Origin: an uncultured bacterium
GTDB taxonomy: Bacteria; Verrucomicrobiota; Kiritimatiellia; RFP12; UBA1067
Assembly (NCBI GenBank): GCA_902761275.1
Contig: CACWJS010000018.1
Span: 1-61,762, forward strand
Direction: 5' to 3'
Length of the DNA stretch: 61,762 nt
Below are positions 1,427 through 55,078 of the stretch, piece after piece (position 1 is the first letter of the stretch; each line of letters begins with the position of its first letter). Both the position numbers and the translations under genes were made by a program. The notes under the pieces are model-generated. The model was not told the origin of the DNA. It searched no databases and was given only the letters and a program-made list of their open reading frames with translations.

Positions 1427-4400
1427 ATGCAACTCATTAGGAGCAAGTTCGATATGACGAACCTAAGGAAATATGTCGCGCTGACGGCGGTCGTCGCTTT
1501 CATTGCGCTCGCACAGAGCATGAATGCTCAGGATGACCTTGACGACCTGTTGGCCGATCTCGAGGGTGAAACCCCCGCGGCCAAGCCAGCGGCTCAAGAG
1601 CCCGCTGCCGAGGAACCCGCGCCAGCGGCTGAGGAGCCTGCTCCTGCGCCTGCTGCCGAGGAGCCCGCAGCCGAGGAACCTGCAGCCGAGGAGCCGGCGG
1701 TGGAAGAACCTGCAGCCGAAGAGCCGGCGGCGGAAGAGCCCGCAGCCGAGGAACCTGCTGCCGAAGAACCCGCGGCCGAAGAGCCTGCAGCCGAGGAACC
1801 CGCGGCCGAAGAGCCTGCAGCCGAGGAACCCGCGGCAGAGGAACCTGCTGCCGAAGAGCCCGCGGCGGAGGAGCCCGCAGCCGAGGAACCTGCTGCTGAG
1901 GAGCCTGCGCCCGTGGCAGAGGAGCCCGCAGGCAAGAAGGTTGATGACGCGCTTGGTCTCCTTGACGAGCTTGCCGGCGAAGAGGCTGACAAGACCGAGA
2001 CATCCACGGAGCAAGTAGCTGAGACTCCTGCGCCTGCTGCCGAAGAGCCCGCTGTCGCGAAGACTGCCAAGGCCGCCGATAGGAAGGATGGCAAGCTCAT
2101 CGACGAGATTCTGACGACCGAGAGACTGCGCCGCGAGGCGATGGACGTACAGGCAATGCGCGAAATCCGCGAGGCGAAGGAAGCAATGGCAAGCGGCGAG
2201 TATGTCGAAGCCGTTCGCCACTACGGCATCGCGGTCAAGCTCCTCAATGACAGCCCCACGGCGATGCGCTACAAGAGCGAGTGCACCGAAGGCATTGCCG
2301 AAGGCCTTTACAGGGCCGCAATCGAGGAAGAGCGCACTGGGCGTCGCGCACGCGCGATCAAGTATATGGAGAAGGCCGTTGACCTTCGCCACCCGAAAGC
2401 GCGCCGCCAGCTCGAGGCGTGGAACAATGCAGACGACCCTGACGCCCACAAGACGGATGTCTCTGAAATTCAGCACCGCCGCAACGATGCCGACTACAAG
2501 CAGCGCCGCGAGAACGAGCGCCGCCACTTGAAGCGCGCAAAGCAGCTTCTTGCCCAGCGCGAGATCGATCGTGCCCTTGACGAATGCGAACTCGTTCTCG
2601 ACAAGAATCCCTACAATCAGGAGGCCATCCGTCTCCGGGACTCCATCGTTCGCAAGAGCGACGTCATCCTCAGGCAGGAACGGGAGGTTGCGCGCAAGAA
2701 GTGGATGGCCGATGTCGACAAGGCGTGGCGTCCTCCCTACGCAACCGATGCCACCGGCCGCGAAGAGGAAAAAGGAGCTACGATCAAGACGAAGCCCGAC
2801 GCCAACAGCGAGCGCACGGTTGAGCAGACCATCATCCAGCGAATGAAGGAAATGCGCCTCCCTGCGATTTCGTTCAAGCCGCCGGCTACGATCATCGACG
2901 CCGTTGAGTACTTCCGCGGTGCGTCCAAGGACTTCGATCGTCCGGAGATTCCGCTTGAGCAGCGCGGCTTCAACTTTGTCCTCAAGACGCCTGAGGCCGT
3001 CCGTATGAAAGAGGCCGCGGCGGCGAGCGATGATGCCGACGACTTCTCCGACACCGGTTCCGACGACGGCGCTGCGGGTGGCGGTCCTATCGGCGTGCCG
3101 GTGATTCCGATGATCACGGCGAGCGACATCTCCTTCTACGATGCGCTGAAGCTCGTCTGCGAGTCCGTCGAGTACAAGTTCCTGGTGCAGGGCCCGATCG
3201 TCATGGTCATGCACAAGGACATGTCGGCCGAAGAGCTCGTCACGCGCTCGTTCCCTGTTCTTTCGTCCTTCACCGAGAAGATGGGCAGCGCCAAGGAAGA
3301 CATCACGACGATGCGTGCCAGTGGCAACGGCTTCGGCGGCAGTTCGCGCAAGAGCGATGAAGGCGAGGAGAACGAGGAGCGCGATTGGAAGGAGTTCTTC
3401 TCGCTCCTTGGCGTCAAGTGGCCAGAGGGCAGCTCGATCTTCTACGTAAAGACGGTCGGCCGCCTCTTCGTCAAGAACACCCAGGACAACCTCGCGGAGT
3501 TCGAGAACGTCCTTGCCCAGCTCAACCAGCAGGTCACGCTCGTCGAGATCGAGACGAGGTTCGTCGAGGTTTGCCAGGATGACCTTAACTCGCTCGGCTT
3601 CGAGTGGATTCTTAACAGCGACTACTCTATCGGTCTCAACAAGCACCTTGCCAAGGCGCTCGGCGTCCGCGGCGGAACATGGGGCGACAGGGGTTCGAAC
3701 GACAGCAACTCGCACAGCTTCAAGTCCTCTTCGTCCTACACCGGCTCCGGAACATACAATGCGTCTGGCGCGAACGGTTCTTCTTCTTCCAGCGAGTATA
3801 CTGTAGATTCGCTGACGCAGAATGGCGGCACCCCCAGCAAGCTGACCAGCAATAGGATTATAACTTCAGACACCGCTTCGTCGCTGCTAAGCTCTGGGTT
3901 CTCAGGAAGTGGGCAAAACAGCTTTTCGCGGTCTGACGCGAGAAGTCGCACGACATACGATCGCTCTACTGGCGCAGACTGGATTTCGAATCGCGGTGGT
4001 AGGCGCAATGCGGGCGTAGGTGCCATTCAAGGTGTGAACGACTTTAGCGACACGGCAAACATGAGCGGCGTCTATTCGACTGGCCAGCGCTATCTTTCGA
4101 CGCTGAACAACCATATCTCTGGGCAGAGCAACGCATATAATGACCAGTTCATGAGGTTGAACGCATTCCTCGGTTCGGCCGACCTTTCGATGATCCTCCA
4201 CATGCTCTCGCAGAGGAGCGATACCGACCTCCTATCCGCGCCGAAGGTGCTTACGCGCCCTGGCGAAGAGGCCGTCATGAAGGTCGTTACCGAGTTCATC
4301 TACCCGACCGACTACGATGTGCAGCTGCAGTCGAGCTCTTCGGGCAGCAGCGGCAGCTATGGCGGCGGCAGTCAGTCCGCGATTCTCGCAGTCGTCGAGC

Positions 4401-5068
4401 CGCAGAGCTTCACGATGCGCGAAGTCGGCGTTATCTTGCAGGTCACTCCGTCCTTGACCGACGACGGCAACGTCGTTGACCTTGAGCTCAACACGCAAGT
4501 CGTCGACGAGCCGACCTGGAAGAACTACGGCATGAGGATTCCGTTCACTGGCAACTCTTCCCAGATGCAGAACTTCTTGGGCATAGGTGATATTCTCACT
4601 GGTCTCGCCGAGGTTCTCACGTCGATTGGTTCGGGACTGTCCGCCGATATGCAGACCGACCTCGCCGGGCGCGCGAGCGATGCGGCCTACAGGGCACTCG
4701 ACAACCTCACGACAGCTGGCAACGAGAATATGACCTACTACGATGTCCCGATGGAACAGCCGTTCTTCCACGTCCGTTCCGTTGACTCGAAGGTTTCCGT
4801 CTACCCTGGTGCGACAATCGTCATGGGCGGTCTCATCACCGAGGCCCGCAAGGCGATAGACGACAAGATTCCGTTCCTTGGCGACATCCCGTTCATTGGC
4901 CGCCTCTTCCGCAGCCATTCCGAGCAGACGTCCAAGCGCAACCTCCTCATCTTTGTCACGACGCGCATTGTCGATGGACGTGGGCGTGAGATGCACAAGG
5001 ATGGCCTTGATCTTGCCGATCAGGGCGGCGACGACGCAAAGCCCGCGCCCGAAGCGCCAGCTAACTAA
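1427..5068 (+). CDS. secretin-family outer-membrane channel (type II/III secretion system secretin domain; PilQ/GspD-like, Amuc_1098-like) with a long N-terminal extension
   Basis: 1213-aa ORF with a signal-like N-terminus (MTNLRKYVALTAVVAFIALAQS). The C-terminal secretin signature is VSVYPGATIVMGGLITEARKAIDDKIPFLGDIPFIGRLFRSHSEQTSKRNLLIFVTTRIV. It also has a (PAAEE)n acidic array, a TPR-like helical region (EYVEAVRHYGIAVKLLNDSP...) and a Ser/Gly-rich insert. Confidence 0.85.
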   Translation: MQLIRSKFDMTNLRKYVALTAVVAFIALAQSMNAQDDLDDLLADLEGETPAAKPAAQEPAAEEPAPAAEEPAPAPAAEEPAAEEPAAEEPAVEEPAAEEPAAEEPAAEEPAAEEPAAEEPAAEEPAAEEPAAEEPAAEEPAAEEPAAEEPAAEEPAAEEPAPVAEEPAGKKVDDALGLLDELAGEEADKTETSTEQVAETPAPAAEEPAVAKTAKAADRKDGKLIDEILTTERLRREAMDVQAMREIREAKEAMASGEYVEAVRHYGIAVKLLNDSPTAMRYKSECTEGIAEGLYRAAIEEERTGRRARAIKYMEKAVDLRHPKARRQLEAWNNADDPDAHKTDVSEIQHRRNDADYKQRRENERRHLKRAKQLLAQREIDRALDECELVLDKNPYNQEAIRLRDSIVRKSDVILRQEREVARKKWMADVDKAWRPPYATDATGREEEKGATIKTKPDANSERTVEQTIIQRMKEMRLPAISFKPPATIIDAVEYFRGASKDFDRPEIPLEQRGFNFVLKTPEAVRMKEAAAASDDADDFSDTGSDDGAAGGGPIGVPVIPMITASDISFYDALKLVCESVEYKFLVQGPIVMVMHKDMSAEELVTRSFPVLSSFTEKMGSAKEDITTMRASGNGFGGSSRKSDEGEENEERDWKEFFSLLGVKWPEGSSIFYVKTVGRLFVKNTQDNLAEFENVLAQLNQQVTLVEIETRFVEVCQDDLNSLGFEWILNSDYSIGLNKHLAKALGVRGGTWGDRGSNDSNSHSFKSSSSYTGSGTYNASGANGSSSSSEYTVDSLTQNGGTPSKLTSNRIITSDTASSLLSSGFSGSGQNSFSRSDARSRTTYDRSTGADWISNRGGRRNAGVGAIQGVNDFSDTANMSGVYSTGQRYLSTLNNHISGQSNAYNDQFMRLNAFLGSADLSMILHMLSQRSDTDLLSAPKVLTRPGEEAVMKVVTEFIYPTDYDVQLQSSSSGSSGSYGGGSQSAILAVVEPQSFTMREVGVILQVTPSLTDDGNVVDLELNTQVVDEPTWKNYGMRIPFTGNSSQMQNFLGIGDILTGLAEVLTSIGSGLSADMQTDLAGRASDAAYRALDNLTTAGNENMTYYDVPMEQPFFHVRSVDSKVSVYPGATIVMGGLITEARKAIDDKIPFLGDIPFIGRLFRSHSEQTSKRNLLIFVTTRIVDGRGREMHKDGLDLADQGGDDAKPAPEAPAN
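1591..1930. repeat. 15-bp tandem repeat array encoding (PAAEE)n inside the secretin gene
   Basis: More than 20 units of gcc gcc gag gaa ccc type. They include an exact tandem 30-mer, gaacccgcggccgaagagcctgcagccgag, at 1766-1795 and 1796-1825. Confidence 0.9.
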
Positions 5069-5075
5069 AGGTAAA

Positions 5076-5672
5076 ATGAAAGTGGCACTAACAGGAGGGA
5101 TTGCCTGCGGCAAATCCCTCCTTTCCAAGTTTTTAAACGAACTTGGCGTCGAGACACTTGACGCCGATGATGTCGTGCATGAGCTTCTCCCCGACCCAGA
5201 AGAGCGTCGACGCATTGCCGCTGAGGTGTTTGCCGATCCCGAGAAACGTCGCGCCCTTGAGGCGAAGATACATCCAGTCGTCAAAGAGAGGATTGACCAG
5301 TGGTTTGAGGGGGCAGGAGTCAGAAGTTGGAGTTCAGAGTTGGAGTTGGAGGGTAGGGGTCAGGGGTCAGGAGTCAGTGGGGCGGGAGTAAAAATTGCTA
5401 TAATTCCGCTTTTATTCGAAGCACACTGGGAGAAAAATTTTGATATAATATGTTGCGTCGCTTCCACACGCGAGAACCAAGTAAAGCGTATGATGACGAC
5501 GAGGGGGATGACGCTTGCGGAGGCCGAGGCACGACTCGCAGCGCAGATGCCTGTCGAGGAAAAGGCCAGGCGTTCGCAGTATGTCATCCGAAACGACGGA
5601 ACAGCCGAGGAGCTCCGCGCAGAAGCGCAAAAGCTCGTCGCCTGGCTGAAAATCTCCAATTTCCAACTCTAA
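5076..5672 (+). CDS. coaE: dephospho-CoA kinase
   Basis: MKVALTGGIACGKS P-loop at the N-terminus, followed by IIPLLFE and a CoaE-like remainder. The ORF-track start at 4878 overlaps the secretin gene and is rejected. The gene contains an in-frame repeat insertion at 5316-5388. Confidence 0.85.
   Translation: MKVALTGGIACGKSLLSKFLNELGVETLDADDVVHELLPDPEERRRIAAEVFADPEKRRALEAKIHPVVKERIDQWFEGAGVRSWSSELELEGRGQGSGVSGAGVKIAIIPLLFEAHWEKNFDIICCVASTRENQVKRMMTTRGMTLAEAEARLAAQMPVEEKARRSQYVIRNDGTAEELRAEAQKLVAWLKISNFQL
5316..5388. repeat. reverse-orientation copy of the CTCCAA/TGACCCC repeat element, in frame inside coaE
   Basis: 5316-5351 is a 34/36 match to the reverse complement of the 36-mer at 5709-5744. 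GGGGTCA heptamers follow. The segment is translated as GVRSWSSELELEGRGQGSGVSGAG. Confidence 0.85.
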
Positions 5673-5838
5673 ACTCTAACTCCTGACCCCTGATCCCTGA
5701 CTCCTAAACTCCAACTCCAACTCTGAACTCCAACTACTGACCCCTGACCCCTAATTTCCACTCTCCAACTCCAACTCTGAACTCCAACTACTGACCCCTG
5801 ACCCCTAACCCCTGACCCCTAAACTCCAACTCCAACTC
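5654..5838. repeat. forward-orientation CTCCAA/TGACCCC repeat array filling the coaE 3' end and the whole coaE-rho spacer
   Basis: The exact 36-mer ctccaactccaactctgaactccaactactgacccc occurs at 5709-5744 and 5763-5798. Around it are CTCCAA hexamers and TGACCCC/TAACCCC heptamers. Confidence 0.9.
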
Positions 5839-5845
5839 AAGATTT

Positions 5846-7408
5846 ATGTCCGAAGAACTCGATGTGTTTGCGAGCGCCGTCACCAAGGGCGCCGCACCGA
5901 AGCCCCAGCAACCCCAGCCGCAGCAGCAGGCGGGCGGCAATAATGGCCAGAAAAAGCGGTTTCACAACCGCGGCGGCAAGAACTTCAACCGTGGCGGCGG
6001 CAAGCCGAACAATTCCCCGATTCGCGGCGCGAATGGCGAGGAGAGCGTAAACCCGCTTCTCAATGCCCCGCTCCCAACCGAACAGCGCGCGCAGGAGGCC
6101 GAAGTCCCCGCGAACCCGAACCGCAATCCCGATCTTCCCGAGTACCGTCTCGCCGACATCCAGACATGGCCAGCGCCGACGATTGTCGAACGCATGATGC
6201 CTGGTGCCGATCCCGAGGAACTTGGCACCTACCGCAAGCATGAGCTTATCTTTGCCGCGATCAGGATGTACCTCGCGAACGGCGGCGCCGTGCTCGCCTC
6301 TGGCTGCCTTGAGATTGTCCGCGAAGGACATGGCTTCTTGAGGTCCGCGAAGAACAACTTCCTCGCGTACCCTGAGGACGTCTTCGTCACGCAGCAGCAG
6401 ATTCGTCGCCATGCACTCAGGACGGGCGACATAGTAGAGGGCCCGATCCGCGACCCGCGCGATCGTGACCGCTTCTTCTGCCTTGGCAACGTCGCGACGG
6501 TAAATGGCAAGGAGCCGTCCGTCGCCGCGCGCGTCATCCACTTCGAGAACCTGACCGCGACCTTCCCGACGCGGCGCATAATCCTCGAGACCGATCCCAA
6601 GGAGTTTTCGACGCGCGTCGTCGACCTCTTCACGCCGATTGGCTTCGGCCAGCGCGGTCTCATCATCGCGCCGCCGCGCGTCGGCAAGACCGTTCTCCTT
6701 CAGAAGATGGCGAACGCGATTTCCAAGAACTATCCCGAGGCGATGCTCATCATCCTTCTCATCGACGAGCGCCCCGAGGAAGTCACCGACATGCAGCGCA
6801 ACACGAAGGCGATGGTGCTTTCGTCTACGTTCGACGAAGAGCCCCAGCACCACGTGAGCGTCACCGAGATGGTGCTTGAGATGTCGAAGCGCCAGGTCGA
6901 GAACGGCCGCGACGTAATCATCCTTATGGACTCGCTGACTCGTATGGCGCGCGCCTATAACACGGTACAGCCACACTCCGGCAAGATCCTCACAGGTGGC
7001 GTCGACGCGCTTGCGATGCATAGGCCAAAGAGGTTCTTCGGCGCGGCGCGCAACATCGAGGGCGGCGGCTCGCTTACGATCATCGCGACAGGCCTCGTCG
7101 ACACTGGCTCCAGGATGGACGAGGTCATCTTCGAGGAATTCAAGGGCACGGGCAACATGGAGATTGTCCTCGACCGTGGACTTGCAGACAAGCGCATCTA
7201 CCCCGCAATCGACATCGACAAGTCCGGGACGCGCAAGGAAGACCTGCTGCTCGACCCGATGGAGCTCGAGAAGACCTGGGGCATGCGCCGCATCCTTTCC
7301 GACGCCGGTCCCGAGAGCGCGATGAAGTCTGTCCTAAACTCGCTTAAGAAGACGCAGTCCAATCCCGAGTTCCTTCTTGCCCTTGACTTAAAGAACCTGG
7401 AGCGGTAA
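5846..7408 (+). CDS. rho: transcription termination factor Rho with a Q/N/G/R-rich N-terminal extension
   Basis: RecA-type ATPase core with [25 protein letters not shown] and [12 protein letters not shown]. There is an OB/RNA-binding part (GFLRS...[25 protein letters not shown]) and a Rho-like C-terminus. Confidence 0.95.
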
Positions 7409-10400: not shown

Positions 10401-12130
10401 CGGTGCCGACCCGCGAGTTCACTGTCGCGTTCGACGGCAATGGCGGAACGGGGACGATGGCGGATCAGAAGTTTGCCGAGGGAGAGGAGAAGAATCTGAC
10501 GGCGAATGCATTTACGAAAGCTGGCTGTTTGTTCGTCGGCTGGAAGGATCGCAGTGGCATGGAATATGCGGACGGCGAGGCGATCGTCGCGACATCCGAC
10601 CTGACGCTTGTCGCGCAGTGGAAGCAAACCGTTGCGCCGCCCACAGCGGCGACGGGGCTCCTATACAGCGGGAGGGCGCAGAAAGGGGCGGACTGGGGCG
10701 TTGGTTATGTGATTGCCGGCAACATCGAGACGAATGCAGGCACCCATTACGCGAAGGCGACGGTTAGAGCTGGCTATGTCTGGGACGACGGCACGACGGG
10801 AACGAAGGAAATCCAATGGTCAATTGCCAAGGCGACATACGACATGAGCGGCGTCACTTTTGAAGACGGCATTTTCATGGCCGACGGAACGCCCAAGAGC
10901 CTCGCAGTTTCGGGCGAACTTCCCGCTGGTGTGCAGGTCTCCTACGAAGGCAACGGCCAGACGGATGCCGGGAGCTACACGGTCACCGCTAAGTTTACCG
11001 GCGATGAAGTCAATTACAAGCCTATTGCAGACATCATGACGGCGACGCTCATCATAACGGGGGGCGTCAATCCTGGTCCAGATGATTCCGGCTCGGGCGA
11101 TTCCGGCTCAGGCGATTCCGGTCCAGGAATCGCCCCGGCGCTCCTTTCCCCCGGCTCATTTCGCGAACCGGCCCGTCGTCGTGGGCTTGGGCCCTGCGGG
11201 TCTCTTCGCCAGGCGAAAGCCGGACAGGCAACTAAGTCGACAATCACCGTTATGCCTATTGGGGGGAAGAAGTACACGAGGAAGGCTTCCTTCATCCCTG
11301 GCGCAAATCCGACGGATGAATACGGCATAGTCTACGGCGTGCATGGGCTGCTTGGCACTTTTGACGGCTATGTGGTCGAAGCGAGCGCGGACGTCTACAA
11401 GTCTAAGGATCCAGCCGCGAAGGCGCTTGCATCTAAGATACCCGTCGCAGTGCATACGTTTGCCTTTGACACGGACAGTGGCTTCGCCGTCTTCTCCGCG
11501 TCCGTCGCCAAGACGGGGAAGACGAAGGTGCAGGGCTATCTCGGCAACGGCGCGAAGGTGTCGGTCTCGACGACAGGCGTACTCGGCGAAGATTACTTTG
11601 CCGTGCCGGTTGCCGTATCAAAGAAGGCCATGGAATTCGGCTTTGTCCTTTGGATTCCGCTCAATGGCGACAAACCGTTTGTCGCGAACATATTCAACTC
11701 GGCATGGAAGGCTGCGCAGACCGGGGGGGCCTATGCCCTTGCCGATGGCGTGCACGTCTTCGACTTCGTGGAACTGCCCACCTTCCGCAGCTATATTGCC
11801 GCAGTGGACGGTACGCCTGTAGCTCCCGTCGGCGAGAAGTTTACGGTATCGGGGTCGAAATGGGCTTTCTCAAAAACGTCCGGCAAGCTGAAGGTCGTTG
11901 ACGGCATTCTCGCAGTAATATCCAAGAGCGAGCCCGCAAACTTGTCTGGGCTCAAGCTCTCGTATGCGGCAAAGACCGGGCTCGTAAAGGGGTCGTTCAA
12001 GCTGTATTACATGGAAGGCGGGAAGATAAAGTCTGACAAGGTGACGATTACTGGCGTTGTGGCGGAAGGTGTCTTCATTGGCAGCGGAACGGTCAAGAAG
12101 CTTGGCTCCTTTGCCGTGTGGGCAGAATGA
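7460..12130 (+). CDS. large secreted surface protein with multiple Listeria-Bacteroides (InlB B-repeat / Flg_new-type) repeats
   Basis: A Shine-Dalgarno AAGGAGG (7447-7453) sits 6 nt before the ATG at 7460; the ORF-track TTG at 7454 is rejected. The signal peptide is [19 protein letters not shown]. The repeat pattern Y.V.F..NGG.G.M......Y......L..N.F...G..F.GW.......Y.......L......LYA.W recurs at least 8 times. Confidence 0.8.
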
Positions 12131-15100
12131 GCGACATAGTCATACACAATGCGAAGGTCCACAACCTGCGGGGAATCGACGTAACGATTCCCCGTGACTC
12201 TCTCACGGTTGTAACGGGGCTTTCGGGGAGCGGAAAGTCGTCGCTTGCGTTCGACACGCTATATGCAGAAGGGCAGCGCAGATACGTCGAGTCCCTTTCT
12301 GCGTATGCACGGCAGTTCCTCGACAGGATGCAGAAGCCCGACGTCGAGAAGATAGAAGGGCTCTCGCCTGCGATTTCCATCGAGCAGCGCACGACGAGCG
12401 GCAACCCGCGCTCCATTGTCGCGACAGTCACCGAGATTCACGACTACTTGAGAATCCTCTACGGATCGATCGCCGTCGCGCATTGCCCGAAGTGCGGCAA
12501 GCCGGTCGTCAAGCAGTCGGCGGAGCAGATCGTCGAATCGATACTGGGCAACCAGGGGGGTGCCGCGAAAATCATCATCTACGCTCCGCTGGTAAAGGGC
12601 AAGAAGGGACGCCACGAGGAGACGCTTGCTTCCGTGAAGCGCAACGGCTTTGCGCGCGTCAGGATCGACGGCACGACATACCCGATTGACGAACTTCCCG
12701 AACTGGACAAGAAAAAGGCGCACAACATAGACGTCGTGGTCGATCGTCTCGTGATTCCCGCGGCGCCCGACGCTGCTTTCAAGACGCGTCTCACCGACTC
12801 TGTCGAACTCGCCCTCAAGACCGGCAAGGGCATAATGGAAGTGGAGAGGTTGGGGGACAAGGGGTCAGGAGTCAGTACAGAGGGGGCGAGGCGCGAATCA
12901 GAAATCTTGTCTGGCGCGGAGCGGAAAGAGCCGAAGGCGAGAGACGCGGAGCGCCAGACCACCTATTCCGAACTCAACGCCTGCCCTGACTGCGGTATTT
13001 CGTTTGATGAGCTGAAGGCGCGGTCGTTCTCGTTCAATTCGCCGTTTGGCGCGTGCCCGACGTGCGCGGGGCTTGGGCAGCTCTACTACTTTGACGAAGA
13101 CCTCGTTGTGCCCGACAAGTCGCTTCCGCTCGAGGAGGCGATACACCCCTGGCGGCGCATGGGGCAGATGAACATTCTCTACCACAGAGAGCTTCTTGCG
13201 CATATCGCGAAACAGTACAAGGTGAAGCTCTCGACGCCCTACGAGAAGCTGCCGGCGAAGTTTCGGCACGGGCTCATGCACGGCTTCAAGGACGATCTCG
13301 TTCTTCCGTGGCGGCGAGTCGACCGGCCGTTCGAGGGAGTCCTCGCGTCGCTTCAGCGACGGCTCGACGAGGCGGAGGATGACGAGATGCGCGCGAAGTT
13401 CGAGGCGTACCAGAGCTTCCGCACTTGTCCCGACTGCGGCGGCTCGCGCCTGCGGCCCGAGTCGCGCGCGGCAACTGTCGCCGGGAAGTCGATCGTCGAA
13501 GTTATGGCAATGCCCGTCACCGAGGCATTGGAGTTTTTCAAAAATAAATTCCAAACTCCAACTAAAGACTCCAACTCCACTCTCCAATTCCACTCTCCAA
13601 CTCCAACTTCCAACTCCAACTCCACTCTCCAACTCCATTCTCCAACTCCAACTCCACTCTCCAACTCATCAAAGCTCGCCGGCCTCAAGGACATCATCGC
13701 CGAGATCGTGCGGCGGCTCCAGTTCCTTCTCGACGTCGGTCTTGACTACTTGACGCTCGACCGCGCGGCGTCCACTCTTTCCGGCGGCGAGATGCAGCGC
13801 ATCCGCCTCGCGACGCAAATCGGCTCTGGGCTCACAGGTGTCCTCTATGTTCTTGACGAGCCGACGATAGGGCTTCACCCGCGCGACAACGAGCGACTTA
13901 TCTCGACCCTCAAGGGTCTTCGCGACCGCGGCAACACCGTAGTCGTCGTCGAGCACGACGAAGAGATGATGAGGAGTGCCGACTACATCGTCGATCTCGG
14001 TCCAGGCGCAGGGCGCGAAGGCGGCAAGGTAATGTATCAGGGCAACTTCAAGGGACTCCTCAAGGCGAAGTCGCTCACCGCCGATTACCTGACAGGAAGA
14101 AAGAAAGTTGGAGTCCAGAGTTCGAGTTGGAGAGAAGAAGCAAAAAATTCCACTCTCCAACTCCATTCTCCAACTCCAACTCAAAACTTCAACTCAAGAC
14201 TCCAACTCAAATCTCTCACCATCTCCGGTTGTACCGAGCACAACCTCAAGAATATCACCGCCCACTTCCCCGTCGGCGCGTTCACTGTGGTGACAGGCGT
14301 CTCGGGCTCGGGCAAGTCGACGCTCGTCGACGAGACGCTCAAGCGGGCGCTTCTCCAGAAGTTCTACCACGCGAAGGACATCCCCGGCAAGTTCAAGAAG
14401 CTCACTGGCTGGGAGAACTTCGACAAGGTCGTGGAAATCGACCAGTCGCCCATCGGCCGCACGCCGCGTTCGAACCCGGCGACGTACGTCGGCTTCTTCT
14501 CCGAGATACGCGACCTCTTCGCGAAGACCGAGTCTGCGCGCGCGCGCGGCTACACTGCGGGGCGCTTTTCCTTCAATGTGAAGGGTGGTCGCTGCGAGAC
14601 GTGCGGCGGCGACGGATTGCAGAAGCTTGAGATGAGCTTCCTCCCCGATGTCTACGTCACGTGCGACCAGTGCGGCGGCAAGCGCTTCAACGCCGAGACG
14701 CTTGAAGTCACCTACGGCGGCAAGAACATCGCGGACGTCCTCGAGATGACTGTCGCGGAAGGGTGCGAGTTCTTTGCGAAGGTGCCGTCTCTCGCACGCA
14801 AGCTCCAGACGCTTCTCGACGTCGGGCTTGGCTACATCGCTCTCGGGCAGTCCGCTACGACGCTCTCAGGCGGCGAGGCCCAGCGCATCAAGCTCGCGAC
14901 TGAACTTTCCCGCCGCTCTACGGGTCGCACGCTCTACCTTCTCGACGAGCCGACGACGGGGCTTCACTTCGACGACGTGGCGAAGCTGATGAAGCTTCTC
15001 CTGCGGCTCCGCGACCAGGGGAACACCATCATCGTCATTGAGCATAACATTGATGTCATCCGTTGCGCCGATTGGATCGTAGACCTCGGGCCCGGTGGCG

Positions 15101-15186
15101 GCGACGCGGGCGGCGAACTTGTCTGCGAAGGGCCCTTGGAAACCGTAAAGGCCTGCCCTCGCTCCGTCACTGCCAAATTTCTCTGA
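12127..15186 (+). CDS. uvrA: excinuclease ABC subunit A
   Basis: [38 protein letters not shown], two ABC modules ([12 protein letters not shown] and [12 protein letters not shown]) and Zn modules (CPKCG, CPDCG...[14 protein letters not shown]...CDQCGG). The ATG at 12127 overlaps the upstream stop (ATGA). It carries three in-frame repeat insertions. Confidence 0.95.
13549..13668. repeat. forward CCACTCTCCAACTCC-type repeat array in frame in uvrA
   Basis: About 120 nt of ctccaa, ccactct and ccattct units, translated as [41 protein letters not shown]. Confidence 0.9.
14107..14208. repeat. inverted pair of the same repeat element in frame in uvrA (local hairpin potential)
   Basis: gagttggagag (14124-14134) is the exact complement of ctctccaactc (14153-14163). 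The arms extend imperfectly. The segment is translated as [33 protein letters not shown]. Confidence 0.85.
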
Positions 15187-30831: not shown

Positions 30832-33800
30832 ATGAAAAGGTTGATATTGCTGATGGTAATGGGTCTTGTGGTTGCTTTGCCTCTTATTGCTGGCACGGAA
30901 ACGGTCGATGGAATTGAATGGACATATACCGTATTAAATGGTGAAGTTATGCTTGGAGGAAGCTACGCTGCAGCCACAGCCGTTCCAACATCTACGGCTG
31001 GGGAGTTGATGATACCATCCTTTCTCGGTGGTTATCCTGTGACGAGCATCAGGGCTCGTGCGTTCGATGGTTGCAGCGGGTTGACGAGTGTGGTAATACC
31101 AGATAGCGTGGCGAGCATCGGAGATTCTGCGTTTTCCCGGTGCAGCGGGTTGACGAACATGACTATGGGTGTCGGCGTGACGAGCATCGGGAAGTATGCG
31201 TTCCGTGATTGTAGGAGTCTAACGAGCGTGACGATCCCCGCCAGTGTGACGAACATCGGTGAGTGCGCGTTCCAAAGGTGTGGCAGGATTGAAGCCGTAT
31301 ACATAACCGACATAGACAAATGGTGCGGGATAACTTTTGGCGATATCGACGCAAACCCCCTTTACTACGCATACAATCTCTACCTAAATGGGTCAAAGAT
31401 AGCAGGAGATTTAACGATCCCTGACGGCGTGACGGCTATTTGCCCTGCCTTGTTCTATGGTTGCAGCGATCTGACGAGCGTGACAATTCCAAATAGCGTG
31501 ACGGGCATAGGAGAGGATGCGTTCTGCAACTGCAGCGGGCTGACGAGCATAACGATTCCCGGAAGTGTAACGAACATTGCGGTGAGTGCGTTCGCCAACT
31601 GCACCAACCTTACAAGCGTTTCAATTGGTGATGGCGCATTGAGCATAGGGGATTCTGCGTTTTCTGGCTGCAGCGGGCTGACGAGCGTGACGATCCCCGG
31701 CAGCGTGACGAACATCGGAGAGAACGCGTTCTATGGTTGTAGCGGAATGTTGTTATTTATCGTAGATGATGCCAATCTTAAATATGCATCCGTGAATGGG
31801 TTGTTGCTATCTAAAGACAGAAAGAATCTAATTCAAGGAGTAAATGGTAATGTAACAATCCCTGATGGTGTGACAAGCATAGGGCGCGATGCGTTCTATA
31901 ATTGCAGGGGTCTTACATGTGTTCAGATCCCTGCCAGTGTGACGAACATCGGTGATAAGGCGTTCAACGGTTGTAGAGGGCTAACTAGCGTAACTATTCC
32001 GAACAGCGTGACGAGCATTGGGAACCGCGCGTTCAACGGTTGCAGAGGGCTGACCAATGTGTCGATTCCGCAATGTGTTTGCACTAATCGGCTGCGGACT
32101 GTTTTTGAATCGTCCTATCAGTCAATTACGAATGTCGTAATCTTAGATGGTGTTACAAGCATCGGGGATGGGGCGTTCTCCGGCTGCAGCAATCTGAAGA
32201 GCATAATAATTCCAGATAGTGTGTCAAGCATAAGGCAAAGCGCATTCTCCGATTGCAGAGCGTTGACGAGCGCATCGATCCCGCAATGTGTTTGCACTAA
32301 TCGTCTGTCGTCCGTTTTTCCATCCTATCAGTCAATTACGAATATTGTTGTTTCGGATGGCGTTACGAGCATGGGAGATTCGGTGTTTGATGGTTGTAGT
32401 AGCTTGGGGAGTGTGATAATCCCCGGCTCCGTGACGGCCATGCAAGGTATCAGTACTAATCGGTTGTCATCTATATTTCCTTCGTTTTATCAGTTGATTA
32501 CAAGTGTTGTCATTCCAGATGGTGTGACGGATATCGTTGATGGGGCATTTGGTGGCTGCAGTCGCTTGGCGAATGTGACAATACCGGACAGTGTGACGTG
32601 CATCGGGAGCAGTGCGTTCGCCAATTGCACAAGCCTTACGAGCGTGACAATACCGGACAGCGTGACGAGTATCGGTGATGGGGCGTTTAAGGGGTGTCGA
32701 GGGCTTGTCGATAAAGATGGGTTTATTGTCGTTAAGAATGTTCTGTATGGATATTTTGGTGAGGCGCAAAGTGTGACCATCCCCAACAAAGTGACGGATA
32801 TTAGTGACGAAGCATTTTACGGCTGCAGCGGCCTGACGAGCGTGACGATACCTAACAGCGTGACGAGCATAGGGGATGGTGCATTCGAGTACTGCAGCGG
32901 CCTGACGAGCGTGATGATACCTAACAGCGTGACTACAATCGGGTCTTCTGCGTTCTACCGATGCGGCGGGCTGACGAGCGTGACGATCCCAGACAGCGTG
33001 ACGAGCATAGGGGATGGTGCATTCGGGTACTGCAGCGGCCTGACGAGCGTAACTATCCCCAATAGCGTGTTAAACGTCGGGTATTCTGCGTTCTATGAGT
33101 GTGAAAACTTGACGAGCATGACAATCCCGCAATGTATCTGTGAAAACCATGGTAGTGTTCACAACTTTTTTGACCCGATATCGCAGATTACGAATATTGT
33201 TGTTGCAGATGGCGTAACGAGCATAGGACCATATTTATTCGGTTACTGTCCGGGGCTGACAAGTGTGACGATCCCAGGTAGCGTTACAAATATTGATGCC
33301 TATGCATTTGAGGGTTGCAGCTCGCTTGCAAATGTGCACATCTCGCATTGTGCCTGCACCATTCCGTTGTCGGGAATTTGCCCTTCATCTATCTGTGATA
33401 TGATTACGAGCGTAGATATTTTGGATGGAGTTACGAATATTATTGTAGGAATGTTTCGCCGCTGTGGCGGGTTGACAAGCGTGTCGATCCCTGCCAGTGT
33501 GACGAGCATAGAGGGAACGGCATTTTTTAGGTGTACAAACTTGACAAGCGTGGTGTTTGCGGGAAATGCGCCAGCAGTTGCCAGAAATTCTTTTTCTGGC
33601 TTGCAGGGATGCGTCGCTTCAGTGTCGCCAAAGTCTACGGGGTGGGGCGTCAATGTCGGCGAGAAGTGGAATGGACTAACGTTGCAGTATTGGCCGGAGG
33701 TGTTGACTGCAGCGGCGAGTGATGCAGAGGTTAGCGAAATAATGTTGACATTTACTGATGCGTCCATTGTGGGTGCAGTGACGAATGTGGCTGAATACGA

Positions 33801-34200
33801 GGCATTCAGAGCTTGGGTCGACGACAAGAACCTATGTCAACCGTCAGTAGTCGCGTCGCCATATGTGGCGGCGGCGTATTTGCTGGGCGCGGAGCGGTTG
33901 TTTGAGAACGAGCCGACGGTCGAGATTGGAGAGTTGTCGATTGGCGAGGGCGAGATTGCTGGCACTACGGCGATGACTGTCGCGGTGACAGTAAAAGACG
34001 GCGAGAGTGTAGTCACGGTTGATGCCGATAAGGTCAAGGCGATGTTCGAGGCGACAAACGATCTTGGCGACTGGACTGGCGCAGCGAAACTGATGCCAAT
34101 GGTGACAACCTCTGGCACCGACGCAAGCGGCAAGATGACTTTTGTTGTCACTCCGGGCGACGGAACGGCGAGCCGCGCGTTTTTTAGAATAAGACGATAG
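30832..34200 (+). CDS. secreted BspA-type leucine-rich-repeat (LRR_5-like) surface protein
   Basis: Signal peptide MKRLILLMVMGLVVALPLIAG. There are more than 25 units of about 23 aa of the type IP.SVTSIGD.AF..CSGLTSVTIP. G+C is visibly lower than in the flanking genes. Confidence 0.85.
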   Translation: MKRLILLMVMGLVVALPLIAGTETVDGIEWTYTVLNGEVMLGGSYAAATAVPTSTAGELMIPSFLGGYPVTSIRARAFDGCSGLTSVVIPDSVASIGDSAFSRCSGLTNMTMGVGVTSIGKYAFRDCRSLTSVTIPASVTNIGECAFQRCGRIEAVYITDIDKWCGITFGDIDANPLYYAYNLYLNGSKIAGDLTIPDGVTAICPALFYGCSDLTSVTIPNSVTGIGEDAFCNCSGLTSITIPGSVTNIAVSAFANCTNLTSVSIGDGALSIGDSAFSGCSGLTSVTIPGSVTNIGENAFYGCSGMLLFIVDDANLKYASVNGLLLSKDRKNLIQGVNGNVTIPDGVTSIGRDAFYNCRGLTCVQIPASVTNIGDKAFNGCRGLTSVTIPNSVTSIGNRAFNGCRGLTNVSIPQCVCTNRLRTVFESSYQSITNVVILDGVTSIGDGAFSGCSNLKSIIIPDSVSSIRQSAFSDCRALTSASIPQCVCTNRLSSVFPSYQSITNIVVSDGVTSMGDSVFDGCSSLGSVIIPGSVTAMQGISTNRLSSIFPSFYQLITSVVIPDGVTDIVDGAFGGCSRLANVTIPDSVTCIGSSAFANCTSLTSVTIPDSVTSIGDGAFKGCRGLVDKDGFIVVKNVLYGYFGEAQSVTIPNKVTDISDEAFYGCSGLTSVTIPNSVTSIGDGAFEYCSGLTSVMIPNSVTTIGSSAFYRCGGLTSVTIPDSVTSIGDGAFGYCSGLTSVTIPNSVLNVGYSAFYECENLTSMTIPQCICENHGSVHNFFDPISQITNIVVADGVTSIGPYLFGYCPGLTSVTIPGSVTNIDAYAFEGCSSLANVHISHCACTIPLSGICPSSICDMITSVDILDGVTNIIVGMFRRCGGLTSVSIPASVTSIEGTAFFRCTNLTSVVFAGNAPAVARNSFSGLQGCVASVSPKSTGWGVNVGEKWNGLTLQYWPEVLTAAASDAEVSEIMLTFTDASIVGAVTNVAEYEAFRAWVDDKNLCQPSVVASPYVAAAYLLGAERLFENEPTVEIGELSIGEGEIAGTTAMTVAVTVKDGESVVTVDADKVKAMFEATNDLGDWTGAAKLMPMVTTSGTDASGKMTFVVTPGDGTASRAFFRIRR

Positions 34201-36543: not shown

Positions 36544-36553
36544 CATTGGTGTA

Positions 36554-36614
36554 ACCTTTCAACCTTTCAACCTTTCAACTTTTCAACTTTTCAACCTTTC
36601 AACTTTTCAACTTT
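36554..36614. repeat. G-free 8-bp tandem repeat (CTTTCAAC / CTTTTCAA, about 7 units) in the tig-clpP spacer
   Basis: The array reads aacctttcaacctttcaacctttcaacttttcaacttttcaacctttcaacttttcaacttt and ends 2 nt before the clpP ATG. Confidence 0.9.
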
Positions 36615-37198: not shown

Positions 37199-38439
37199 AA
37201 GAACTGACCTGTTCCTTTTGCGGAAGAAGTTCCAAGGAAGTCGGGATGATCCCCGGTCCCGACGCGAACATTTGCGTCGACTGCGTTCGCCACGCCAACG
37301 AGATGGTGACGCGCCACGAAAAGAGCGCGAAAGACGTTCCGCCTCTTCCGCCGACACCGACCCCGAAGGAGATAAAGGCGTTTCTCGACCAGTACGTCAT
37401 CGGCCACGACGAGGTCAAGAAAGTACTCGCCGTCGCCGTTCACAACCACTATCGCCGCCTTGAGGCAGCCGAGAAGGGCAATGGAACGGACGGGGGTTCT
37501 GGCACCCCCGCACCCCAGCCCGCGGAAAAGTTTACTGATGTTGAGATAGAGAAGTCGAACATCCTCCTTATCGGGCCGACGGGAACTGGCAAGACGCTTC
37601 TCGCGCGGACGCTTGCGAAGATGCTCGGCGTTCCGTTCGCCATTGGCGACGCGACGGTGCTCACGCAGGCGGGCTACGTTGGCGAAGACGTCGAGAACCT
37701 TGTCCGCTACCTTCTCCAGAATGCCGACGGCAACGTCGAGCTTGCAAAGCGCGGCATAATCTACGTCGACGAAATAGACAAGATCGCGTCGAAGACCGAT
37801 AACGTTTCGATCACGCGCGACGTCTCGGGCGAAGGCGTTCAGCAGGCGCTTCTCAAGATCCTCGAGGGCACGATTTGCCGTATTCCTCCGAAGGGGGGCC
37901 GCAAGCACCCCGACCAAGAGTACATCGAGGTCGATACCTCCAACATCCTCTTCATCTGCGGCGGCGCTTTCGTCGGACTCGACAAGATAGTCGGCGAGCG
38001 CACAGGCAAGCGTGCGATAGGATTTGGCGCGGCAGAGTCCTCCTCCGCCAAGGCTAAGGAGGACAAGCAGGGGAACGCAGACGTTCGCCCGGAAGACCTC
38101 GTCAAGTTCGGGCTAATCCCCGAGTTTACCGGCCGCCTTCCCGTCATCACCACGATGAAGGAGCTTTCCGAGGACGATCTCGTTCGCGTCTTGACCGAGC
38201 CGAAGAATTCGCTCGTAAAGCAGTACCAGAAGCTCCTTTCGATGGATGGCGTCGCGCTCTCGTTCGAACCCGATGCCCTTAAGTCGCTCGCAAAAACTGC
38301 GCTTGAGCGCAAGACTGGCGCGCGCGGACTACGCGCAGAGATGGAGCGTCTCATGACCGACGTTATGTACGAAGCTCCTGGCAACGCGAAGATGAAGAAA
38401 GTCGTCGTGACTAAGAAGATGGTTGAGGAGAGGAGTTAG
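37195..38439 (+). CDS. clpX: ATP-dependent Clp protease ATP-binding subunit ClpX
   Basis: The ATG overlaps the clpP stop (ATGA). It has the Zn finger CSFCGRS...CVDC, Walker [25 protein letters not shown] and IPEFTGRLP. Confidence 0.95.
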
Positions 38440-38505
38440 GGGTCAGTAGTTGGAGTTCAGAGTTGGAGTTGGAGATAGGAGTTAGTAGTCAGGGGTCGGG
38501 AGTTA
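38431..38505. repeat. reverse-orientation copy of the CTCCAA/TGACCCC element spanning the clpX stop and the clpX-panD spacer
   Basis: 38439-38474 is the exact reverse complement of the 36-mer at 5709-5744 and 5763-5798. The clpX TAG (38437-38439) overlaps the first base of that exact copy and lies within the surrounding repeat-like sequence. Confidence 0.9.
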
Positions 38506-38512
38506 GTGATAG

Positions 38513-41222: not shown

Positions 41223-42730
41223 GTCTCGGGGATACGATTGCGGCTGTTGCAACGGCTCCTGGGCGCGGAGGAGTCGCGGTCGTTCGCGTAAGCGGACCTG
41301 AAGCGTTTCAAGTCGCCAAGCGGCTTACTGGCCACACCCCCAAACCTCGTAGGGTCAGTTTAGAGTCTATTAGCGACCCTGGCTCTACCTTAATTGACAC
41401 TGCAGTTGTTCTTGCCTTCAAGGGCCCCCACTCCTACACTGGTGAGGATGTCGTAGAATTCCAGTGCCACGGTGGCTCCGTCACGCCTCGCCGCGTTCTC
41501 GAGGCTTGCCTTGCCTCAGGCGCGCGCCTCGCGAATCGCGGAGAATTCACCGAGCGCGCGTTTCTTAACGGCAAACTATCCTACGAAGAGGCGGAATCTG
41601 TTCTCAATCTCGTCGATGCCAAGACAGACCGTGCGGCCGATGCTGCGCTCCGCAGCGTGTCCGGTGAGTGTCGCAAGGCAACAAGGGAAATCTACGACGC
41701 TCTCGTCGACCTCTCTTCGACCGCCGAACACGCGCTTGACGTAAGCGAAGATGAGTTGCCCGATGGTTTTCTCGATGGGCTCGCCTCTTCTGTCGCCTCA
41801 ATCGCCTCGCGCCTCGACGATGCGATTCGCCGCGCCAAGGAGGGGAAGATCCTTCGTGACGGCGCTCTTGTAGTGATCGCGGGTCCGCCGAACGCAGGAA
41901 AAAGCTCACTTCTAAACGCTCTTCTCGGGGAAAGCCGTGCGATAGTCTCGGCGACGCCTGGCACGACGCGCGACTCTATAGAGGAGTGGCTCGACATTAG
42001 CGGCTGGCCAGTGCGTCTTGTCGACACGGCGGGGCTTCGCGAAACCACCGACGCCATCGAGGGCGAAGGCGTCACGCGTGCGCGCGACCTTATGGAAAAG
42101 GCCGACATTGTGCTAAACCTGACTCCCGCAGACGGCGATCCGACAGGTGGGATGTGTGGGACGTGTGGGACGAGCGGGACATGCAGGACAGTCGCCGTCA
42201 TCGAAGTCCTTTCCAAATGCGATCTGATAGTAAACTCCGAAGATTATGGCTCTCGTTACCACTCCGCAGTTTCACACTCGACAACCGCTGTTCACGCGAA
42301 TCCCGATAGTGGTGGTTTGGTGGCGCGAAGCGGTGGAGCGTTAGCGGGAACAACAACCATCGGTGTTTCTGTTAGCGCCAAGACAGGCGAGGGACTTGAT
42401 GCGCTCCGCGGCGCAATTGCCGCGGAACTCGAGCGCAGGGCCGCCGAACCAGGCGAGGCGGAAGGCGGGCTCGGCTGCGGCGCGTCGGCCCTGATTGAAG
42501 CGCGGTCGCTCCTCTCCCCCACTCCCCCACTCTCTCACTCCTCCACTCCCCCACTCCCCCACTCCCCCACTCCTCCACTCCTCCACTCCTCCACTCCCCC
42601 ACTTTCCGACCTAGTTCTTCTCGCCAACTGCGTCCGAGCAGCGGCCGAACGGCTGGGCGAGGCCGTCGGTGCGACCTACTCGGCCGACATGCTTGACGCC
42701 CTCTTTTCTCGTTTCTGCGTCGGGAAGTGA
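41219..42730 (+). CDS. mnmE: tRNA modification GTPase MnmE
   Basis: The GTG start overlaps the upstream stop (GTGA). The sequence has [45 protein letters not shown] and the C-terminal FCVGK motif. Extra low-complexity inserts are present. Confidence 0.9.
42147..42190. repeat. GGGAC-type G-run array in frame in mnmE
   Basis: gtgggatgtgtgggacgtgtgggacgagcgggacatgcaggac is translated as [15 protein letters not shown]. Confidence 0.7.
42511..42604. repeat. CCACTCC(C/T)C oligo-repeat array in frame in mnmE
   Basis: ...ccccactcccccactctctcactcctccactcccccactcccccactcccccactcctccactcctccactcctccactcccccact is translated as [31 protein letters not shown]. Confidence 0.9.
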
Positions 42731-54341: not shown

Positions 54342-55078
54342 CCGACGCACATTGCCATGTCTCCTGCGGTGACTCGTCTGTGCGCGAGTTGCTTATTGGT
54401 CGCGACTTCTTTGGCGTTCATCCCTGGGAGACGCTCGATGATGGGACAACCGGGACAGGCGGGACAACCGAGACAAGACGAGCATTAGTATCGGATGTTC
54501 CATTTCTCGCTACGCTTCGCGCTCAACTTCTCGACCACCCAAACGCTGGCGTTGGCGAGATTGGGCTTGATCGTCTGAAAAGCCGCGACATTTCACCGCG
54601 CATGCGCGAGGTCTTCGAGGCGCAGCTTGCGCTTGCTCTGGAACTTGGTCGCCCCGTTGTTCTTCACGGCGCGAAGTGCTGGGGTCAGGTCGTCACAACG
54701 GTTTGCCGCCATCTTTCCCACTCCCCCACTCCCCCACCCCCCCACTCCCCCACTCCTCCACTCCCCCACTCCCCCACTCCCTCATTCCTTTTTCATGGCT
54801 TTTCCAGATCTGACGGGCTTATTCCAGAGATTGTCAAGCTCAATGGTTTTATTTCAGTGGGACCGGCCGTTTTGAACGACCACGCCGTGAACTACCGCGA
54901 GCTCGTTAAGAAAATCCCGCTCGACCGGCTCCTCGTCGAAACCGACAGGACTTCTTCTTCAGACTCTCCGCCGATCTCCGACGTCCTTGCCAAAACGGCC
55001 GACATCCTAAATATCTCCTCTGCGGAACTCGAGCGGATTACCGACGAAAACGCCGACCGATTCCTTGGCGTCGTGTGA
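54338..55078 (+). CDS. tatD: TatD-family metal-dependent hydrolase
   Basis: The sequence has DAHCHV, GEIGLD, PVVLHG, FHGFS and LLVETD. The ATGA overlaps the upstream stop. Two low-complexity inserts are present. Confidence 0.8.
   Translation: MTDAHCHVSCGDSSVRELLIGRDFFGVHPWETLDDGTTGTGGTTETRRALVSDVPFLATLRAQLLDHPNAGVGEIGLDRLKSRDISPRMREVFEAQLALALELGRPVVLHGAKCWGQVVTTVCRHLSHSPTPPPPHSPTPPLPHSPTPSFLFHGFSRSDGLIPEIVKLNGFISVGPAVLNDHAVNYRELVKKIPLDRLLVETDRTSSSDSPPISDVLAKTADILNISSAELERITDENADRFLGVV
54443..54476. repeat. GGGACA-type G-run array in frame in tatD
   Basis: gggacaaccgggacaggcgggacaaccgagacaa is translated as GTTGTGGTTETR. Confidence 0.7.
54717..54783. repeat. CCACTCCCC oligo-repeat array in frame in tatD (same family as 42511-42604)
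   Basis: cccactcccccactcccccaccccccactcccccactcctccactcccccactcccccactccctc is translated as [23 protein letters not shown]. Confidence 0.9.

Follow-up and report, generated by a model that had tools for sequence, protein, structure and literature searches.

The stretch of DNA analysed here (61,762 nucleotides of contig CACWJS010000018.1 from an uncultured rumen bacterium of the Kiritimatiellia; the whole stretch is called the window) contains coaE, the gene of dephospho-CoA kinase, between a secretin gene (1427-5068) and rho. Within coaE lies a 69-nt in-frame segment of repeat DNA, at a site that is empty or filled with other repeats in close relatives. The features of the locus, and a further copy of the repeat elsewhere in the window, are:

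5076 to 5672, plus strand: coaE, 198 amino acids, frame intact, Pfam CoaE (E = 2.4e-33), with matches to CoaE structures in PDB
5310 to 5320, plus strand: left copy of the flanking direct repeat, GGGGCAGGAGT, a heptamer-like seed already present in the empty allele
5321 to 5389, plus strand: the in-frame insert, 69 nt or 23 codons (residues ~82-104); the length difference to the empty allele of a relative, L047, is exactly 69 nt
5325 to 5351, minus strand: exact copy of a dispersed 27-nt core, CTCCAACTCCAACTCTGAACTCCAACT, read in coaE as SWSSELELE
5352 to 5389, plus strand: tract of GGGGTCA-type heptamers, with the right copy of the direct repeat, GGGGCGGGAGT (5379-5389), at its end
5654 to 5838, plus strand: C-rich mosaic array with a 54-nt period and ~3.3 copies, spanning the last coaE codons, the stop and the coaE-rho spacer and holding two exact 36-mers
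5683 to 5806, plus strand: spacer arms complementary to the coaE insert (5308-5377 with 5683-5752 at 89%, 5308-5378 with 5736-5806 at 86%)
5846 to 7408, plus strand: rho, downstream of coaE, Pfam Rho_RNA_bind and ATP-synt_ab
38433 to 38510, minus strand: third composite copy (heptamers, core, heptamers) in the clpX-panD spacer, with the clpX stop (38437-38439) inside it

An earlier note on this DNA had pointed to a 36-mer, CTCCAACTCCAACTCTGAACTCCAACTACTGACCCC, which indeed occurs exactly at 5709-5744 and 5763-5798 on the plus strand and at 38439-38474 on the minus strand, with a copy matching at 34 of 36 positions inside coaE (5316-5351, minus strand); dinucleotide shuffles give 0 matches expected by chance. 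The note had read the coaE copy as part of an in-frame segment, GVRSWSSELELEGRGQGSGVSGAG, between a helix ending in ...IDQWFEG and the strand VKIAIIPLLFE, and this reading holds. The predicted insert peptide includes WFEGAGVRSWSSELELEGR, solved CoaE structures have no counterpart of the segment, as the note had stated for the enzyme of E. coli, and alignments to them break at query residues ~72-109. The protein is otherwise short: compared with Thermus TT1252 (1uf9), ~16 residues are absent from its CoA-binding region, in the stretch from residue 33 to residue 44. Because Tandem Repeats Finder (TRF) puts the array at 5654-5838, the last ~6 coaE codons and the TAA stop fall within the repeat, as had also been proposed; the C-termini of CoaE differ in relatives having another spacer repeat. 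The last codons and the stop of clpX likewise come from the repeat.

The idea of a discrete 36-nt element fared less well. The inverted homology between coaE and the spacer is real, but it extends over about 70 nt at 86-89%: the insert matches the spacer repeating unit, inverted, at 62 of 70 positions without gaps, and it is ~87% similar to the clpX-panD copy. Since the insert matches the whole spacer unit, the unit is a ~70-nt composite of heptamers, core and heptamers, of which the 36-mer is the best-kept part. The insert itself is a mosaic of the core and heptamers. It reads, in order, CAGA, the reverse complement of the core (5325-5351), GGTA and GGGGTCA GGGGTCA GGAGTCA GTGGGGC GGGAGT, contains four G-runs and is flanked by an imperfect 11-nt direct repeat, GGGGCAGGAGT and GGGGCGGGAGT. 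The empty target, AGGGGGCAGGAGT, matches a heptamer dimer, AGGGGTCAGGAGT, at 12 of 13 positions. The part common to all four window copies is the 27-nt core, and it is the core, unlike the 36-mer, that is shared across genomes. The spacer array of coaE is C-rich in the sense strand; at clpX the G-rich strand is sense, so the direction of transcription does not fix how spacer arrays are oriented.

Comparison with relatives identifies the segment as an insertion. The 120 best-matching CoaE protein clusters (64-96% identity) were compared and the DNA of nine relatives' coaE loci was read. The 120 proteins range from 174 to 252 amino acids, and most of this variation lies between ...IDQWFEG and VKIAIIPLLFE, the remainder at the N- and C-terminal ends. 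The window-type insert is present in 31 of the 120 and a heptamer-only peptide (GVRSQGS...) in 6; the site is empty in 2 (P0063 and P0064), and the remaining best clusters carry three other repeat-derived peptides. The empty allele L047 (protein P0064, 174 amino acids) differs from an insert-bearing allele at 10 of 483 flanking nucleotides, which bears out the in-frame insertion that had been claimed. The alleles read at the DNA level are:

L047: empty, reading gagggggcaggagt followed by aaaaattgct
Window: the L047 sequence plus exactly 69 nt (5321-5389), between GGGGCAGGAGT and GGGGCGGGAGT
L051, L055 and L056: 69-nt insert, identical among the three and 3 nt off that of the window
L049: (GGGGTCA)4, +21 nt (3 units)
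L050: heptamers only, +63 nt (9 units)
L054: heptamer scaffold of the window with a 66-nt GC-rich hairpin module replacing the hexamer core, +102 nt
L052: GGGACGAAC-type hairpin, +63 nt, folding at -38 kcal/mol
L053: palindrome with CGCAGAG/CTCTGCG arms, +126 nt, folding at -65 kcal/mol, with the ends TTTTAACGCAGAG...CTCTGCGTTGAAAAA

At least five sequence types occupy this one site among close relatives. The heptamers are present in 1.5, 4.5 or ~10.5 units, and one heptamer scaffold holds different modules, the 27-nt core in the window and the 66-nt GC-rich module in L054. The hairpin elements of L052 and L053 are unrelated, and the palindromic element of L053 is also present in the coaE-rho spacer of L049. 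Every allele read at the DNA level is in frame, with differences that are multiples of 3 nt, a pattern qualified by the fact that the alleles were found via intact proteins. The earlier note had regarded an equally long, unrelated loop in orthologues as evidence against a mobile or expanding element. Such loops exist, but they are themselves other repeat families, so that the reading widens rather than falls: the coaE site is a hypervariable hotspot. The coaE-rho spacers of L047, L049, L050 and L052 hold inverted arrays of one unit type around a short centre (GCAGAGTAGCGGAGTAGCAGAG ... CTCTGCGTCTCTGCGTCTCTGCG in L049, for example), and these element families seem in general to be built as hairpins of oligo-repeats.

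Chimeric assemblies are classically caused by repeats and the window probably stems from a metagenome-derived genome, which would make an assembly artefact, or a pseudogene, a natural suspicion. However, the same insert recurs in the 31 clusters from ENA, JGI, NCBI and Logan, on contigs of up to 259 kb, and is therefore not a misassembly, the possibility that the earlier note had raised; given also the intact frame and a ratio of nonsynonymous to synonymous substitution rates (dN/dS) of about 0.1, the probability of an artefact or a pseudogene is close to nil. With the insert site excluded, dN/dS of coaE is 0.08-0.2 in all distant pairs and, judged by these ratios, the gene is under purifying selection. 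In an AlphaFold2 model based on 37 relatives (mean predicted local distance difference test score, pLDDT, 80.8), residues 81-102, which follow helix 55-78 and precede strand 106-109, are coil with a pLDDT below 50; the insert is thus predicted to form a disordered surface loop. The frame-kept alleles and the steps of 3 or 9 heptamer units are what selection on translation predicts, not what removal of the segment from the RNA would predict. Three CTGACCC units give TGA in every frame, and heptamer tracts can therefore code only as GGGGTCA, the orientation seen in coaE and uvrA. An intron or an intein was rejected, as there are no motifs of either and the frame is kept in all alleles. Nor does the site behave as a phase-variable contingency locus, since the allele steps, in alleles found through intact proteins, are multiples of 3 nt.

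Divergence of the insert does not go in step with divergence of its flanks. Flanking differences were counted over 228 nt upstream and 255 nt downstream, 483 in total:

L051 and L047: 10/483, insert against empty site
L055 and L050: 6/483, core insert against heptamers only
L051 and L055: 88/483, 69-nt insert identical
Window and L051: 60/483, insert differing at 3/69

An identical 69-nt cassette is found in coaE backgrounds 18% apart, and sister strains 1-2% apart have different cassettes. This mismatch between flanks and inserts excludes simple vertical descent with slow decay; recent precise loss or gain and exchange between lineages are needed. The coaE gene of L054 is itself a mosaic, with its upstream part near L056 (4/228) and a 3' end of the L050/L055 type, and homologous recombination between lineages has therefore occurred inside this 0.6-kb gene. 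Such allele recombination would find its homology in the heptamers to one side and, to the other, in a nearly invariant block. In one scan of JGI metagenomes, the junction of core, GGTA and heptamer was found only in another coaE allele, on which ground the 69-nt block as such was rejected as a dispersed cassette. Because the junction is confined to coaE, the inserts have more likely spread via recombination of coaE alleles than through repeated insertion of a free cassette. The earlier note had suggested that the inverted copies bracketing the end of coaE could act as a recombination substrate; none of the nine relatives' coaE loci read as DNA shows the bracketed segment inverted.

In contrast to the 69-nt block, the 27-nt core is dispersed, as the earlier note had supposed for its repeat. 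The exact core, CTCCAACTCCAACTCTGAACTCCAACT, was found at 46 loci of 15 species-representative genomes, all of them rumen or gut metagenome-assembled genomes (MAGs) labelled Kiritimatiellia, Lentisphaerae or Verrucomicrobia, with 17 copies in JAZSOG01 and 10 in RUG12612. The immediate flanks vary from copy to copy, and in 43 of 64 copies at least two CTGACCC-type heptamers lie within 42 nt of the core, where the background is 0.023 units per 42 nt. Long open reading frames (ORFs) hold 8 of 54 copies (~15%), and Pfam assigned four representative core-bearing ORFs to DUF5107-TPR, GH92, Era and hexapeptide-transferase/AMP-ligase. A phage origin was rejected because the exact 27-mer is absent from the viral contigs of the IMG/VR collection. 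Mapping repeated k-mers over the window (k = 11, 3 or more copies) gave too much noise to be useful.

These data could be taken to mean that the core or the larger composite is a non-autonomous mobile element, of the kind of MITEs (transposable elements of the miniature inverted-repeat type), REPINs (hairpin doublets of repetitive extragenic palindromic, REP, sequences) or small dispersed repeats, moved by an enzyme encoded elsewhere that targets heptamer-like GGGG sequences. The identical 27-mer in 15 species genomes with diverse adjoining sequences would fit such an element, as would the identical insert within divergent coaE backgrounds. In the window, where copies were not selected by their match, core mismatches are bimodal, with four exact copies, none with 1 mismatch and four with 2-4; a bare 27-nt core lies in a TPR-protein loop of L019, and some copies take the form of a hairpin, with two inverted arms (uvrA 14106-14194, the L047 spacer, L025 and L036). 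Arguing against a mobile element, the 69-nt window insert has no terminal inverted repeats and folds alone at only -11 kcal/mol. Its imperfect 11-nt flanking repeat coincides with heptamer homology, from which it is not distinguishable, and is the same as microhomology would give. As regards pairing of the REPIN kind, there are hairpins at uvrA 14106-14194 and in the L047 spacer, many copies are single, and the arms at coaE are 305-357 nt apart. Among the ~28 window ORFs scanned, which are not all of the ORFs in the window, there is no transposase or REP-associated tyrosine transposase (RAYT). The orthologues of L019 show a hypervariable TPR-protein loop and no clean empty site that would isolate its core, and the junction seen in coaE occurred nowhere else in the metagenome scan. 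We consider a mobile element of this kind a tentative and, on balance, unlikely explanation.

The earlier note had also envisaged that the inverted copies pair in the mRNA. For 5290-5850, the predicted minimum free energy is -241.8 kcal/mol (z = -12.8), with ~88 long-range pairs between 5298-5430 and 5703-5814, so that a long-range stem is indeed predicted in silico. From this it might be argued that the pairing in the coaE-rho transcript is a functional RNA structure, affecting coaE translation, RNase III processing or the ability of Rho or ribosomes to reach the rho leader. The same long-range pairing is predicted in L051 and L056. L047 and L052, which have a spacer array without the window-type coaE insert, possess a G-rich arm within the spacer, and no terminator-like site was found in the spacer. 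A scan of 4900-6000 for sigma-70 promoters and terminators gave no promoter and a single terminator-like site, on the minus strand inside rho. L055, however, has the identical insert with a 78-nt spacer that belongs to an unrelated repeat family, and only 5 pairs are predicted there; a conserved function of the bracket is therefore not supported. Moreover, the coaE-rho spacers are wholly different among close relatives, the 5' arm of the duplex is translated, and complementarity is expected of any two arrays of the same family in opposite orientation. A functional stem is thus doubtful in our view, and we give it little credence. A known RNA family was rejected as well: an Rfam scan of the whole window returned two tRNAs only and no family overlapping the repeats.

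Immediately behind the insert lie two further features that may bear on the transcription of rho:

5396 to 5404 and 5441 to 5449, plus strand: two TGNTATAAT motifs resembling extended -10 sequences, of which the first begins 7 nt downstream of the insert
5390 to 5461: AT-rich block of ~72 nt, nearly invariant, synonymous sites included, in ten alleles that are 10-18% different elsewhere

The window holds 10 copies of the motif, where 0.22 would be expected, and by the ORF coordinates these are mostly just upstream of gene starts. The pair inside coaE may serve rho as an internal promoter, in which case the leader would be C-rich and ~400 nt long. If so, rho transcripts would lack the 5' arm of the duplex, which adds to the doubts about the stem. 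The same arrangement could suggest that the insert is adaptive, either as a selected linker or interaction loop or as a G-quadruplex tract that tunes the internal rho promoter. The insert stops 6 nt short of a TGNTATAAT motif in the nearly invariant block, its conservation exceeds neutral drift (3/69 differences to L051 at a coaE dS of 0.53), and G-rich heptamers related to those of its four G-runs form G-quadruplexes in vitro in Xanthomonas and Nostoc (PMC4692102). Against an adaptive role, the same site in close relatives is vacant or holds unrelated sequences of 21-126 nt, the loop is disordered in the AlphaFold2 model, and the Xanthomonas and Nostoc repeats are likewise without a function that has been found (PMC4692102). 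An adaptive insert is very improbable.

In the explanation that we favour, with a probability of roughly 60%, the coaE segment represents repeat DNA of a selfish or recombinational kind, tolerated and seeded at a heptamer-like motif of glycine codons, and not a functional domain. The genomes of the host group, Kiritimatiellia of rumen and gut, are full of mosaic arrays of 6-8-nt units (CTCCAA, CTGACCC, CTCCCCCA and others), in which small conserved modules, including the 27-nt core, are nested. The CoaE loop that joins the long helix to the PLLFE strand has the coding sequence GAG GGG GCA GGA GT, whose chance likeness to a heptamer dimer (12/13) would constitute the seed. From this seed heptamers would expand via slippage, and array sequence would be copied in via homology-guided recombination or template switching, the likely donor being the inverted array 300-400 nt downstream, which is 89% complementary to the insert; this mechanism of copying and its direction are what we infer. 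Selection would retain only alleles that are free of stops and differ by a multiple of three, and the G-rich orientation would thereby be forced. The insert would be translated as a disordered surface loop while purifying selection on the enzyme continues. Alleles would turn over rapidly through slippage, precise loss between the 11-nt flanking repeats and recombination between strains, and the RNA duplex with the spacer would be a by-product of the inverted arrangement.

Several points weigh against this explanation. No transposase was seen among the scanned ORFs of the window, and in the one metagenome scan the core-heptamer junction was confined to coaE. The loci of the core were chosen by exact match, by which its invariance and sharp boundaries are partly built in. 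The insert is over-conserved for a neutral loop, with the 3/69 differences to L051 cited above and 0/69 among L051, L055 and L056, which requires recent exchange, homogenisation or constraint. A more far-reaching model would account for the exchange by an active, sequence-guided system in Kiritimatiellia of the rumen that puts in, swaps and takes out modules of 27-130 nt at heptamer-like GGGG seeds throughout the genome by some recombinase, transposase or template-switching activity. It would account for the identical cassettes in divergent coaE genes and the different ones in sister strains, would also act on essential proteins, in their surface loops, and on DNA just upstream of promoters, and would be a bacterial counterpart of the cyanobacterial small dispersed repeats. 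We regard such a system as distinctly unlikely.

Tolerated repeat DNA in coding regions has a precedent in the Rickettsia palindromic elements (RPEs), to which the earlier note had likened the coaE segment, aptly as far as the phenomenon is concerned. RPEs are dispersed palindromes of ~100-150 bp with a conserved peptide, which occur in frame in housekeeping genes, are tolerated at surface regions and comprise several families per genome (Ogata et al. 2000, as summarised in PMC10969869). The repeats studied here share with them the in-frame occurrence in unrelated housekeeping genes and the existence of orthologues lacking the insert (69 nt relative to L047), and the inserts of L052 and L053 (63 and 126 nt) are palindromic. 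By contrast, the coaE insert of the window is 69 nt long, non-palindromic (-11 kcal/mol) and built of 6-7-nt units and a 27-nt core, and one site holds at least five sequence types. The hosts also differ: all matches of the core are to MAGs labelled Kiritimatiellia, Lentisphaerae or Verrucomicrobia, RPE sequences themselves not having been compared, and Kiritimatiellota are free-living gut anaerobes without a reduced intracellular genome.

In architecture, the closest parallel is provided by the short tandemly repeated repetitive sequences (STRRs) and small dispersed repeats (SDRs) of cyanobacteria. As reportedly described by Elhai and colleagues in 2008, they form a heptamer matrix with nested 21-27-nt modules at many loci, in mosaics that vary between relatives. 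We know of no mechanism for these cyanobacterial repeats. The STRR1 unit is CCCCAGT and that of the present repeats CCCCTGA, which by inspection only are different. The heptamer matrix here also varies among relatives, in copy number at coaE and in heptamer sequence at a site in uvrA (GGGGTCA in L047, GGGGAAC in L051), and a module of ~20-30 nt is nested in heptamers at many loci (46 loci, with 43 of 64 copies near heptamers). Unlike the cyanobacterial repeats, those described here have other sequences, belong to another phylum and have a sizeable share of their core copies, 8 of 54, located in frame within coding regions.

G-rich heptamers, GGGAATC and GGGGA(C/T)T, are abundant in Xanthomonas and Nostoc, often near gene ends, and a function was not found (Rehm et al. 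2015; PMC4692102). They resemble the present heptamers in their genome-wide occurrence, their position near gene ends, their variable copy number and the hairpins that inverted pairs may form; the difference is that heptamers here lie in frame in coaE and uvrA. REP sequences and REPINs, which are associated with RAYT transposases, are likewise short and dispersed, often in inverted hairpin pairs, and mostly intergenic near gene ends (PMC3116915). The present repeats share the dispersal and occur in part as inverted pairs but are oligo-repeat mosaics without a fixed palindrome of ~25 nt, have in-frame coding copies and lack a RAYT among the window ORFs scanned. With coding simple-sequence repeats and contingency loci they have in common a short unit whose copy number varies inside a gene. 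A 7-nt unit would shift the frame, however, and only changes of 3 or 9 units were seen, in an essential enzyme that gives no indication of being switched on and off. By sequence or host, the coaE feature is not a member of the RPEs, the STRR/SDR repeats or the Xanthomonas and Nostoc heptamers, and a literature search found no paper on repeats in Kiritimatiellia. We would class the feature as in-frame colonisation by repeats, with an allelic series that is unusually informative.

The series is natural, clean and well sampled and comprises, at one site of an essential enzyme and in sisters 1-2% apart, the empty state, heptamers only and four other modules, which is rare for repeats entering or leaving coding DNA. 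Repeats that colonise housekeeping genes in frame are thereby known not just from Rickettsia but also from gut anaerobes that are free-living and belong to another phylum, and an RPE-like phenomenon is linked with heptamer arrays of the cyanobacterial type. In practice, such tracts inflate and split up protein families, disrupt the assembly of metagenomes and can lead the annotation of Kiritimatiellia MAGs astray. If an enzyme truly drives the exchange, it would represent a new kind of very small mobile DNA.

Repeat inserts in the window are not confined to coaE. Relative to PDB 2r6f, UvrA (12118-15186, 1022 amino acids) has three insertions, at residues 248-277, 477-524 and ~668-689, all of which are repeat tracts that differ among the window, L051 and L047. 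These in-frame inserts and two octamer arrays in other housekeeping genes are:

12859 to 12948, plus strand: uvrA insert 1 (residues 248-277), GGGGTCAGGAGTCAG and a small palindromic element, polymorphic between L051 and L047
13546 to 13690, plus strand: uvrA insert 2 (residues 477-524), CTCCAACTCCACT-type array with a C-rich sense strand
14106 to 14215, plus strand: uvrA insert 3 (residues ~668-689), inverted hexamer arms around a short loop (hairpin form)
42514 to 42603, plus strand: octamer array (CTCCYCCA)n in mnmE, in frame, about 11 copies
54717 to 54781, plus strand: octamer array (CCCACTCC)n in tatD, in frame, about 8 copies

The octamer arrays are read as loops rich in Pro, Ser, Thr and His; with an 8-nt unit, the frame is kept only by multiples of three units. 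At a fourth uvrA site, near 12559, the window has no insert, L047 has (GGGGTCA)4 and L051 (GGGGAAC)3-4, and uvrA of L051 contains extra copies of the small palindromic element GTCTGGCGCGGAGCGG...CGCGGAGCGCCAGAC. The spacer between the genes of trigger factor and clpP is filled up to the clpP start by (AACYTTTC)x7 (36553-36614), with a G-free sense strand. The secretin gene upstream of coaE has a long N-terminal coding repeat, (AAEEP)n, at 1607-2052 with periods of 15, 30 and 45 nt, which is unrelated to the oligo-repeat families. Finally, a gene for a large protein (30832-34200) contains tandem repeats of 69 and 138 nt (TRF, 32823-33128), whose shared repeated words suggest a leucine-rich-repeat surface protein.

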